Assembly (NCBI GenBank): GCA_000004695.1 | Contig: CM000153.2 | Span: 1,632,001 to 1,696,000 of the forward strand | Source of the DNA: Dictyostelium discoideum | Lineage: Eukaryota | Direction of reading: 5' to 3' | Length of the DNA stretch: 64,000 nucleotides | In this document: positions 31,944-34,942 of the stretch, piece by piece | Layout of the letters: each line of letters opens with the position of its first letter | Position numbering within the stretch: the stretch's first letter is position 1 | Position numbers and translations under genes: made by a program | The notes under the pieces: generated by a model | Database searches by the model: none | Seen by the model: only the letters and a program-made list of their open reading frames with translations | What the model was told of the DNA's origin: nothing

Positions 31944-32118
31944 TTTTTTTTAATTAATTATTTATTTTTTATTACCATCATTAAAACTTTTGGAAACAAA
32001 AAATCAAATTGTTAAGATACACGTGAAAAGTAATTCATCCTTTTCTATCCTTAATCTCGGTCAATTTTAACCAATCTTTCAAAAAAAATCACCAATCCAC
32101 CACGATCTACAGATCTAA

Positions 32119-32404
32119 CTTACCAAATCGCCGATTCAAAGGAATCCCATCGAGATGAATTCCTACGCAGACGCGGCTAAAATGGCCAACCCCTCCACCC
32201 ATATGGACGAGGCATCAGAGAACTTCATTAAGGAATTCTCCACAAAAACAGCAGAGATAAAGGAGACCTACCCCAAATTATCAATAGGCCTCAAAGACAT
32301 CTCCAAATACTGCGAGACCATATTGAACATGACTGCTCTCTCAACCTACGAGAAAAACAACGGATTCTACCCAATTACACTCGAATTCCCCAAAATGGAT
32401 CTCA
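32119..32404 (+). CDS. Retroelement ORF fragment upstream of the assembly gap
   Basis: Open frame ...MNSYADAAKMANPSTHMDEASENFIKEF...GFYPITLEFPKMDL runs into the N-run. The domain is unclear. Confidence 0.3.
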
Positions 32405-32504
32405 NNNNNNNNNNNNNNNNNNNNNNNNNNNNNNNNNNNNNNNNNNNNNNNNNNNNNNNNNNNNNNNNNNNNNNNNNNNNNNNNNNNNNNNNNNNNNNNN
32501 NNNN
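32405..32504. other. Assembly gap (100 N) inside the retroelement
   Basis: Run of n characters. The true length is unknown, so the frames on either side cannot be joined. Confidence 0.95.
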
Positions 32505-32531
32505 CAAAGCTTTGCAGACGATTCGGCTTCA

Positions 32532-34097
32532 ATGGTCCCAGACTCTCAACAACTTGAATTAGTACTACAACACTTCAATTCATTTTGCAAAGCCACTTCC
32601 TCAAAACTAAACATCGACAAATCTTCATCAATTCTTATAGGCAACCCAGACAATACCAACCAAAGAATTCCAATATCTACAAATCCAGAAAGATACTTGG
32701 GATACTTCTTCACAGGCAAAGGGATAACAAGAAAAATGCCAGAAATATTAAACACAATAAGATCATCCTTAGTACTATGGAAAACCACTGACTCAACAAT
32801 CAAAACCAAAACCAACATCCTCAAAGCATTCGCACTCTCTAAATTAACCTACTATTCATATGTAGAGAACTTTAAGGAAGAGGAATTAAACCAAATCAAT
32901 AAATTGGTCGAATGGTTTTTATCGGCACCTAACAACAAAAATGCTAGTGGATTTCAAGTTATTAATTTAATGAGAACCAAAAGAGCAAGATACCCACTAA
33001 ATGTAGGGGGCTGGAACATTTGGAATATAGAATTGAGACAACTGGCGCAGAAACTTTGGATCATAAACCAGTTCATCCTAGCACTAGAAACCAAACAAAC
33101 AAACTCATCTCATCACAAAAGCTGGGAATATCAGATCCAAAAAAACAAATTCACATCCAGATACCTAAAAGAAAACTTAGACGAATGGAACAAAATAAGA
33201 ATAAAAAAAGCAATCTTCAACAATAATCTCACATCCATAAAAAACGAAAATGGACAACCACTTTCACTGGCAGAATGGTATACCACAATTCAAGACCAAA
33301 ATCCAACCATCCCTAAAACGGAATTCCAATCATCTCTAAACTTAAGAGGCTACAGCTATAATCAACTCTTCAACAACATACTGAAGATAAAAGACCCTAA
33401 AACAAGAGACACAATGTTTAGATTCCATGCCAGATGCCTTCCAATAAACTACCTTCACAACAAACAATGCCCACTCTGCAAAGAAGATATGAGCAAAGAC
33501 CCATACGGTCACCTGTTCTTCTCATGCAAGAAAACAAAACAATTCATAAAAATAAATAAACTCAAAAATTTCATCTATATTACCACAGGCAAAGGTAAAA
33601 ACTGGCACCATACAAGAATTAGGCAAAATAACAATTTCATTAATAGAATAACTCCAAAATTATCACCGATAGCCAAAAAAGATCAAGAAGTGAATGCAGA
33701 TTACGCCAACCTCAGATTCCACAAAGAATACTTTGAATGGAACTATAAAGCAATAGACTATGATCTAACTAGATCATTCGCATATAGAAACCTAATGGCC
33801 CTTATCCTCCACAACATTTGGATTTGGATTTGCAATCAAATATACAGTGAAGATCCTTTAACAGATGAATCACTATCATACAGCTCCCTTCTAAAGAAAT
33901 GGCACAAATTGGCCACTCTAGAATACATCAAAAAAGCAAAAGATCTGAAAAACTTATCAGCAAAAGACCATAATAACTTCAAAGATCCTAAGATCCTTCT
34001 CACTTCAACGATCAAGCTAAGAAAAACAACAGCTAATTACTATTGTATTCCAGAATCATCTCTCCCAAATATTATATCTTTTGATCAATTCATATGA
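32532..34097 (+). CDS. Retroelement ORF2 C-terminal part (reverse-transcriptase distal motifs + Zn-knuckle-like domain)
   Basis: ERYLGYFFTGKGI and KLTYYSY resemble non-LTR RT motif E and the thumb. C-terminal cysteine motif present. Codon usage differs from the host genes. Confidence 0.55.
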   Translation: MVPDSQQLELVLQHFNSFCKATSSKLNIDKSSSILIGNPDNTNQRIPISTNPERYLGYFFTGKGITRKMPEILNTIRSSLVLWKTTDSTIKTKTNILKAFALSKLTYYSYVENFKEEELNQINKLVEWFLSAPNNKNASGFQVINLMRTKRARYPLNVGGWNIWNIELRQLAQKLWIINQFILALETKQTNSSHHKSWEYQIQKNKFTSRYLKENLDEWNKIRIKKAIFNNNLTSIKNENGQPLSLAEWYTTIQDQNPTIPKTEFQSSLNLRGYSYNQLFNNILKIKDPKTRDTMFRFHARCLPINYLHNKQCPLCKEDMSKDPYGHLFFSCKKTKQFIKINKLKNFIYITTGKGKNWHHTRIRQNNNFINRITPKLSPIAKKDQEVNADYANLRFHKEYFEWNYKAIDYDLTRSFAYRNLMALILHNIWIWICNQIYSEDPLTDESLSYSSLLKKWHKLATLEYIKKAKDLKNLSAKDHNNFKDPKILLTSTIKLRKTTANYYCIPESSLPNIISFDQFI

Positions 34098-34194
34098 TTA
34101 AAATAACCCTTCAGCTTAAATGATAAGCCTTTAAATAAATATTAAATAAAACTCGTATTAACACAGATGGACATATATCAATCTTGTTAATCCA

Positions 34195-34241
<47 letters not shown>

Positions 34242-34942
34242 AAATTGTTTATTTAAAACTGGAATTATTTTCACCACATTTTTTGTTATAAAAAAAAAAA
34301 ATTAAAGGTATTTAAAAATAAAAAAAATGGTAAAAATTCACAAGATTTGCCAAGCTAATTAATTTTTTTTTTTTTTTAATGCGCAAAGATAAATTTCAAT
34401 ATTATCCTCATCATTTAAAATTGTGAAATTAGAAGTAATAAATGTATTTATCCTTTAACAAACACACCTAAATTTTATCAAGGGTCTAGAGGATAGAGGG
34501 ACAATCATTACAAGTAATGAATACTTTAAAAAAAAATTGGATTTCTCATAAAAATCTTTTCATTCCAAACATTGTGAAAACAACTCTAAACAATCTATTC
34601 AAATGATAATTTGACCTTTTATTTATAAATATAAAATTAAAATTAATTATCTCTAATAATATAATAATTTTTTTAAAAAAAAAAAATTTACATAATAATT
34701 TTTTTTTTTTTTTTAATCCCAATTTGAATCAGATGTTGTATCCATTGGAGCATTACTACTACTACTACTACTATTTCTTTTGCCTTTAATGTCCAAACTC
34801 ACTAAAAATAATTAATATTTCAGACCTAGATTTGGATGTTTGTAAATAAAAAATGGTTGCTGATTTTTATTTTTTAAAGATTAAATAATTAATTTTTTTT
34901 TTTGACAAAATACACCACCTGGCTTTTAATTGATATAAAAAA

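Follow-up and report, generated by a model that had tools for sequence, protein, structure and literature searches.

We analysed a 64-kb stretch of Dictyostelium discoideum chromosome 4 (GenBank assembly GCA_000004695.1, contig CM000153.2, positions 1,632,001 to 1,696,000 of the forward strand), below called the window, which has an A+T content of 77% and contains a single run of 100 N (32405-32504). At 32014-34239 on the plus strand it carries a retrotransposon without long terminal repeats (non-LTR) of the TRE3 family, which has inserted into the 3′ flank of a class I RNA gene and points in the direction of this gene. Most sampled relatives of the element lie behind a tRNA gene; no tRNA gene or B box was found near the window copy. 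While the element itself is a typical representative of a well-known family, its target is atypical. The evidence suggests, without proving it, that TRE3 can target class I RNA genes, a plausible hypothesis resting on one event.

The retrotransposon and its relatives

An initial annotation of this stretch had described a TRE-like non-LTR retrotransposon flanked by a 9-bp target-site duplication, and both the type of element and the duplication were confirmed. The element and its junctions are composed of the following parts:

32005-32013 (+): left target-site duplication CAAATTGTT, single copy at the empty sites (L003; window 44352)
32014-32404 (+): TRE3 5′ untranslated region (UTR) and the first 83 codons of open reading frame (ORF) 1, with the ATG at 32155
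32405-32504 (no strand): assembly gap of 100 N within the element, hiding up to ~3.1 kb
32505-34097 (+): C-terminal 530 codons of TRE3 ORF2 (end of the reverse transcriptase, RT, and the Cys/His region), open to the stop codon with no internal stop
34098-34239 (+): TRE3 3′ UTR and A40 tail, the latter at 34200-34239
34241-34249 (+): right target-site duplication CAAATTGTT, preceded by an extra C at 34240

The start of ORF1, the C-terminus of ORF2, the A40 tail and the 9-bp duplication together give the copy the architecture of a non-LTR element. It had been considered 5′-truncated, which turned out to be wrong: the 5′ UTR (141 nt) and the start of ORF1 are kept, and the copy begins at position 47 of the reference segment extracted from a full-length relative (L002 c3), so that only ~25 nt of the 5′ end (AAAAACCGTACCGCGATCAAGAGGATAC) are absent. 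Positions 32014-32404 match the start of the full-length copies from L001 and L002 at 98.2% identity, and the N-terminus of ORF1 is 100% identical to P0018. The element looked short because the 100-N gap stands in for the hidden sequence, which corresponds to L002 16462-19573 in the full-length copy and comprises the rest of ORF1, the apurinic/apyrimidinic endonuclease (APE) and most of the RT. The designation of the visible part as an RT fragment was thus inaccurate, as the RT domain of the window copy falls almost entirely into the gap.

On the 3′ side of the gap, 1.7 kb of the element are 100% identical in DNA sequence to L002 8339-10060, and the C-terminal part of ORF2 is 99% identical to DDB_G0285835 of strain AX4, located on a 5.45-Mb record. 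The 3′ end ATCTTGTTAATCCAATATT followed by poly(A) recurs in the copies from L001, L002, L004, L007 and L008. The tail had been counted as A39; it is in fact A40, and the extra C separates it from the duplication. The left and right 9-bp direct repeats match perfectly. As the target reads AAAAAATCAAATTGTT, a duplication of up to 16 bp is possible if one mismatch is allowed; in related copies the duplication measures 9-10 or 14-15 bp. The C at 34240 may have been added without a template, or it may represent a T-to-C mismatch in a 16-bp duplication AAAAAA[T/C]CAAATTGTT. The copy is essentially full-length and young; a recent event is indicated by the tail of 40 uninterrupted A, by the duplication without mismatches and by the complete identity of the 3′ 1.7 kb to another copy.

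For the family assignment we sampled eight copies from another D. discoideum assembly, all at 98-100% identity. The full-length relative L002 c3 is ~5.2 kb long and encodes an ORF1 of 416 aa and an ORF2 of 1256 aa, which overlap by 79 nt, ORF2 being in the -1 frame. ORF2 matches the RVT_1 profile with 116.6 bits, followed by the CPLC Cys/His region; its N-terminus aligns with the whole Exo_endo_phos profile, at 18 bits, which is below the cutoff of 24.5. This relative fits the published description of TRE3-A, with a consensus of 5229 bp, a -1 frameshift and the order APE-RT-zinc finger (PMC5006619, PMC5911963). The positions of the eight copies were as follows:

L001 copy: 102 bp downstream of a tRNA gene, same orientation
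L002 c1 copy: 80 bp downstream of a tRNA gene, same orientation
L002 c3 copy: ~87 bp downstream of a tRNA gene, same orientation
L004 copy: 114 bp downstream of a tRNA gene, same orientation
L007a copy: ~86 bp downstream of a tRNA gene, same orientation
L002 c2 and L007b copies: in tandem, directly behind one of the tRNA-linked copies
L008 copy: inside a cluster of LTR elements (transposons)

Five of the eight relatives are therefore found 80-114 bp behind tRNA genes and two of the eight in tandem behind such a copy. All five of these tRNA genes have internal B boxes, and an external B box precedes the element in four of the five cases (L002 c3 lacks it). The structure of the element and the way in which its relatives behave both place it in TRE3, which bears out the membership in the TRE group proposed at the outset. 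The subfamily is probably TRE3-A, judging from length, frameshift and abundance. A cluster of proteins with 38% identity includes a GenBank protein named 'similar to HC domain of Tdd-3 and DRE', and this name suggests that the cluster represents a different subfamily.

Several structural variants of the same family were noticed in the other strain. The L001 copy has an internal deletion of 1175 bp (11031-11032), the L007 copy has its 5′ end duplicated in tandem (4517-4580), and L002 6801-12193 is a head-to-tail TRE3-TRE3 tandem behind one tRNA gene. In L002, ARAGORN also called two 91-nt tRNA-Thr(UGU) genes with clear B boxes, at 6627-6717 (+) and 20083-20173 (-), which were not reported by the Rfam tRNA model at its gathering score. 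These two genes probably contain an intron.

The class I RNA gene and the insertion site

The gene upstream of the element, at 31884-31941 (+), is a Dictyostelium class I RNA gene. It matches the full Rfam model RF01414 with 51.8 bits (gathering score 41.5, E = 4e-7), and its membership in the class is further seen in the stem of its 5′ and 3′ ends together with the conserved motif, and in the spacing of its Dictyostelium upstream sequence element (DUSE). Its features are:

31805-31812 (+): DUSE promoter motif TCCCACAA, which fits [AT]CCCA[AT]AA (PMC3188802)
31866-31872 (+): TGTG box AAATGTG
31889-31899 (+): conserved class I motif CCTTACAGCAA, within the gene
31944-31951 (+): T8 run, candidate terminator of RNA polymerase III (Pol III) type, intact despite the insertion

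The DUSE is located 72-79 nt 5′ of the RNA start and ~60 nt upstream of the TGTG box. The TGTG box is a known motif of D. discoideum class I genes, in which the DUSE lies ~60 nt upstream of it (PMC7919456). The junction with the element is 62 nt past the last T of the T8 run. The earlier figure of 61 bp behind this run is close to this value, and the shared plus orientation of gene and element was confirmed; the RNA itself ends at 31941, and counted from this end the junction is 72 nt away.

Rfam places six class I RNA genes above the gathering score in the window. Two diverged class I-like copies, at 31538-31592 (+) and 43966-44021 (+), score 27-29 bits, below this threshold. The terminal stem is still present in both, as are the TGTG box and long T runs; they may be paralogues that are decaying. 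Around 40 class I and class II genes are known. A run of at least five T begins 2-4 nt past the RNA 3′ end in all eight class I and class I-like genes of the window. Transcription of class I genes by Pol III was suggested by their discoverers (PMC7919456), and in the 31884 gene the T-run terminator is the sole feature bearing on this that is legible from the sequence.

The cluster is built of duplicated units, with 30539-31984 resembling 34803-36302 (86.6%), 34677-35146 resembling 36523-37009 (92.6%) and 34230-34773 resembling 44341-44897 (89.6%), while the cassette 31776-31970 is found inverted at 43622-43821 (90.5%). TRE3 sits between two tandem class I units. We also examined whether the element could be tied to the class I gene at 34945-35001, which we rejected as this gene is on the opposite strand and ~700 bp away. 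Likewise rejected was an A40 run at 31705-31744, ~113 nt downstream of the class I-like copy 31538-31592, as the tail of a truncated second TRE3; the sequence preceding it is unlike the TRE3 3′ end.

The target is preserved without the element at two places. Within the window, an uninterrupted CAAATTGTT directly followed by TATTTAAAACTGG is present at 44352-44373 in a diverged paralogous segment (two matches in the window against 0.05 expected), in agreement with the initial annotation. This paralogue has no class I gene at the equivalent position, and the nearest class I-like gene on the same strand is ~330 bp upstream. The second empty site is the orthologous locus of the other D. discoideum assembly (L003/L005; GCA_054883475.1, CM142510.1), the only one covered by our strain comparison. 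It is 99.8% identical to window 26612-32013 and 99.7% identical to 34230-51115, with nothing in between, and is empty at the exact insertion point. The empty allele shows the same class I gene (identical in sequence), T run and spacer, which runs through AATCAAATTGTT into TATTTAAAACTGG. Since the orthologue is empty yet carries the class I gene, the insertion postdates both this gene and the divergence of the two sampled strains, and it is strain-polymorphic. The syntenic locus of D. firmibasis is without the entire class I segment.

As a gap of 100 N lies inside the element, we considered that a mis-join across it had placed TRE3 here artificially. Such an error would be in line with the 100% identity between the sequence 3′ of the gap and a copy at another place of the chromosome in another strain, and with the lack of an element at the locus in the other assembly. 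However, both junctions are in contiguous sequence, with poly(A) at the right one, and the site of the duplicated 9 bp occurs once in the empty alleles. A mis-join could not have produced the target-site duplication, so we rejected this explanation, which is extremely improbable.

We searched for a conventional target of TRE3. ARAGORN found no tRNA gene in the whole 64-kb window. Rfam at gathering scores recovered no RNA family other than class I across the window, and no tRNA; at the relaxed threshold of E<=1 over 26000-50000 it again found no tRNA, solely class I RNAs and two weak irrelevant matches. Beside the class I genes, Rfam found no Pol III RNA family within ~6 kb of the insertion. 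The B box consensus GTTCRANNC has three matches in the 64 kb against seven expected, with the nearest more than 7 kb from the insertion, and between 31400 and 32013 there is no A box (TRRYNNARYNG) on the same strand and no exact B box. The only similar string is TTTCAAGTC at 31626, 388 bp upstream, which has one mismatch and lacks the first G. The empty orthologous site in the other strain also contains no tRNA gene and no B box. An overlooked tRNA gene, named in the initial annotation as something that would undo its proposal, was hence found neither in the window nor in the empty allele.

It could still be argued that a tRNA gene, a tRNA pseudogene or a solitary B box near the site was missed or has been lost. 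TRE5-A is able to use solitary B boxes and loci with A and B boxes, and TTTCAAGTC would be a candidate of this kind. Its distance from the junction nevertheless exceeds every published TRE3 range, the searches above returned no tRNA gene and no exact GTTCRANNC within 7 kb, and as the uninterrupted allele has neither, there was nothing to lose. We regard a hidden conventional target as highly improbable. The missing tRNA gene or B box is a trait of the insertion site, not of the ancestry of the element.

Guided or untargeted insertion

From the poly(A) tail and the target-site duplication it follows that the element entered the 3′ flank of the class I gene by target-primed reverse transcription, leaving the gene and its T run intact. 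Regarding the choice of the site, the situation is less clear. The geometry is TRE3-like: same orientation and 72 bp from the gene end, which is within the published ranges (40-150 bp for TRE3, 14-228 bp for TRE3-A and 34-188 bp for TRE3-B). We see about even chances that the site is non-random and that TRE3 was guided by a Pol III-type complex at the class I gene, or by its chromatin. An attraction of the Pol III type fits with the T runs of all eight class I and class I-like genes, with the published suggestion of Pol III transcription and with the precedent of TRE5-A.

Under such guidance, TRE3 would read at the class I gene the same cue as at tRNA genes. This cue might be a Pol III-type complex that is stably assembled for transcription or termination, or else the chromatin which such a complex makes just downstream, and class I genes with their DUSE promoter and T-run terminator would supply it without an A or B box. 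Class I genes would then be weak secondary targets of TRE3, and recognition would not be strictly tied to the B box and TFIIIC. A more general version, in which TRE3 reads a general feature of Pol III-type units instead of the B box and TFIIIC, and class I genes are genuine Pol III units and natural if weak targets, is more tentative, and we place it somewhat short of even chances. Class I targeting, if true, would contradict the current model, since the B box and TFIIIC could then not be all that TRE3 recognition depends on.

Several points weigh against guidance by the class I gene. Only a single event is available. No element is found at the seven other class I and class I-like genes of the window or at any of the eight in the other strain, so one of 16 gene instances is occupied in the two strains, in contrast to 61% of tRNA genes; any targeting of class I genes would be weak for this reason. 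Published models link the position of TRE3 to internal or external B boxes, and there is none at this site. The distance of 72 bp is shorter than the 80-114 bp of the five tRNA-linked copies. Transcription of class I genes by Pol III is putative. Moreover, the class I cluster occupies an unusually long stretch without protein-coding genes (~7 kb between ORFs), in which neutral insertions may survive and so raise the chance estimate. Finally, the case was picked after the fact by a reader seeking oddities. The proposal that the targeting machinery recognises class I genes, made in the initial annotation, therefore fared only partly well: neither the identity of the element as TRE3 nor the absence of tRNA genes refutes it, but a single event with one occupied gene out of 16 is what it has to build on.

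The main competing explanation is a rare untargeted integration of TRE3 into AT-rich, gene-poor DNA with a dense class I cluster, where the copy was harmless and persisted, the class I gene being uninvolved. The low occupancy and the missing B box, the published anchor of TRE3, agree with it, and the interval 30.3-37.2 kb contains no long ORF, so an insertion would be tolerated there. Copies away from tRNA genes do exist: at least one relative (L008) has no tRNA gene on the same strand in the 6 kb upstream, and up to 11 of the 110 TRE3-A and TRE3-B copies in AX4 do not directly adjoin a tRNA gene. On the other hand, TRE3 is described in the literature as 'always' associated with tRNA genes, ~100 bp downstream of them. 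The other 99 AX4 copies adjoin a tRNA gene directly, and tandem insertions account for most of the 11 for which no distance was measured, which makes true orphans rarer still.

We estimated how often an untargeted copy would fall into a TRE3-like position by chance. The model assumed a random intergenic insertion in a genome of 34 Mb with ~40 class I genes, each with a TRE3-like downstream window, and the right orientation. The chance per random intergenic insertion is 2e-4 to 5e-4, which speaks against a random landing. With at most 11 orphan copies, 7e-4 to 6e-3 such placements are expected, so that a chance placement is unlikely (roughly 10^-3 to 10^-2). The figure should perhaps be raised to 1-10%, to the disadvantage of guided insertion, because the case was chosen post hoc, other kinds of small RNA genes would have been equally noticeable and the gene-free interval of ~7 kb is tolerant. 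Taken together, we give untargeted integration a chance somewhat below even.

In the literature on TRE3 with class I RNA or DUSE, we found no report of such an insertion. The observation bears on two questions, namely which polymerase transcribes the abundant, development-regulating class I RNAs and which cue TRE3 follows downstream of tRNA genes. Guidance by the class I gene, if true, would speak for an assembly of Pol III-type complexes on class I genes and for a targeting of TRE3 that is not purely driven by the B box and TFIIIC. Under the more general version, TRE3 insertions could serve to report in vivo where Pol III occupies genes other than tRNA genes. As a single polymorphic insertion of a well-known element, the present case is a well-documented lead and not a result.

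The wider locus and known systems

The surroundings of the class I cluster differ between species. In D. firmibasis (L006 13463-13835) a distance of 372 bp lies between the RasGAP gene and the COBRA1 and ProRS genes behind it, while in D. discoideum ~14.5 kb (window ~30280-44830) separate these genes. Given the 372 bp in D. firmibasis, this segment is lineage-specific at this position. It contains the class I cluster, an ORF of 347 aa and a gene of 734 aa. The latter, an intronless ORF at 38895-41099 (+), is 100% identical to DDB_G0284191 of AX4. It has VapE-like and DUF5906 domains and the UniRef name NrS-1 polymerase-like helicase, a hallmark of viruses and mobile elements; a homologue search with DDB_G0284191 returned only the protein itself. 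The 347-aa intronless ORF at 37261-38304 (+) is identical in both D. discoideum assemblies. It had no Pfam match even at E<=10, and contains an H-x3-H ... C-x2-C motif (HYHLGHAPAH...CPMC) which resembles the N-terminal zinc finger of integrases. A scan for promoters and terminators of bacterial type was uninformative.

Among known systems, the window element is most readily compared with TRE3-A (formerly Tdd-3), with which its family shares the two ORFs, the -1 frame of ORF2, the APE, RT and Cys/His region encoded there, the length of ~5.2 kb, the poly(A) tail and a target-site duplication of variable size. The window copy differs in its site, as no tRNA gene or B box lies upstream and a DUSE-driven class I gene is found in the equivalent place, at the slightly shorter distance of 72 bp.

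The insertions of TRE5-A at a 5S gene and at loci with A and B boxes are likewise cases of a TRE element at a non-tRNA locus and at its usual distance, and they have been read as a probe of Pol III complexes (PMC5391098). TRE5-A, however, belongs to a sister family targeting the upstream side, and its sites carry A and B boxes or proven Pol III genes and were hit repeatedly in experiments, whereas our case is one natural event at a site with no A or B box, beside a gene whose Pol III status is putative.

Yeast Ty3 also uses 5S and U6 genes. Ty3 and Ty1 resemble the guided reading of our case in that they, too, recognise the Pol III machinery and not the tRNA sequence (PMC5911963), but both are LTR elements with an integrase and insert upstream of the gene. 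The dictyostelid LTR retrotransposon Skipper-2 shares with TRE3 the insertion window downstream of tRNA genes; it is of an unrelated class, and the window element has no LTR and no integrase.

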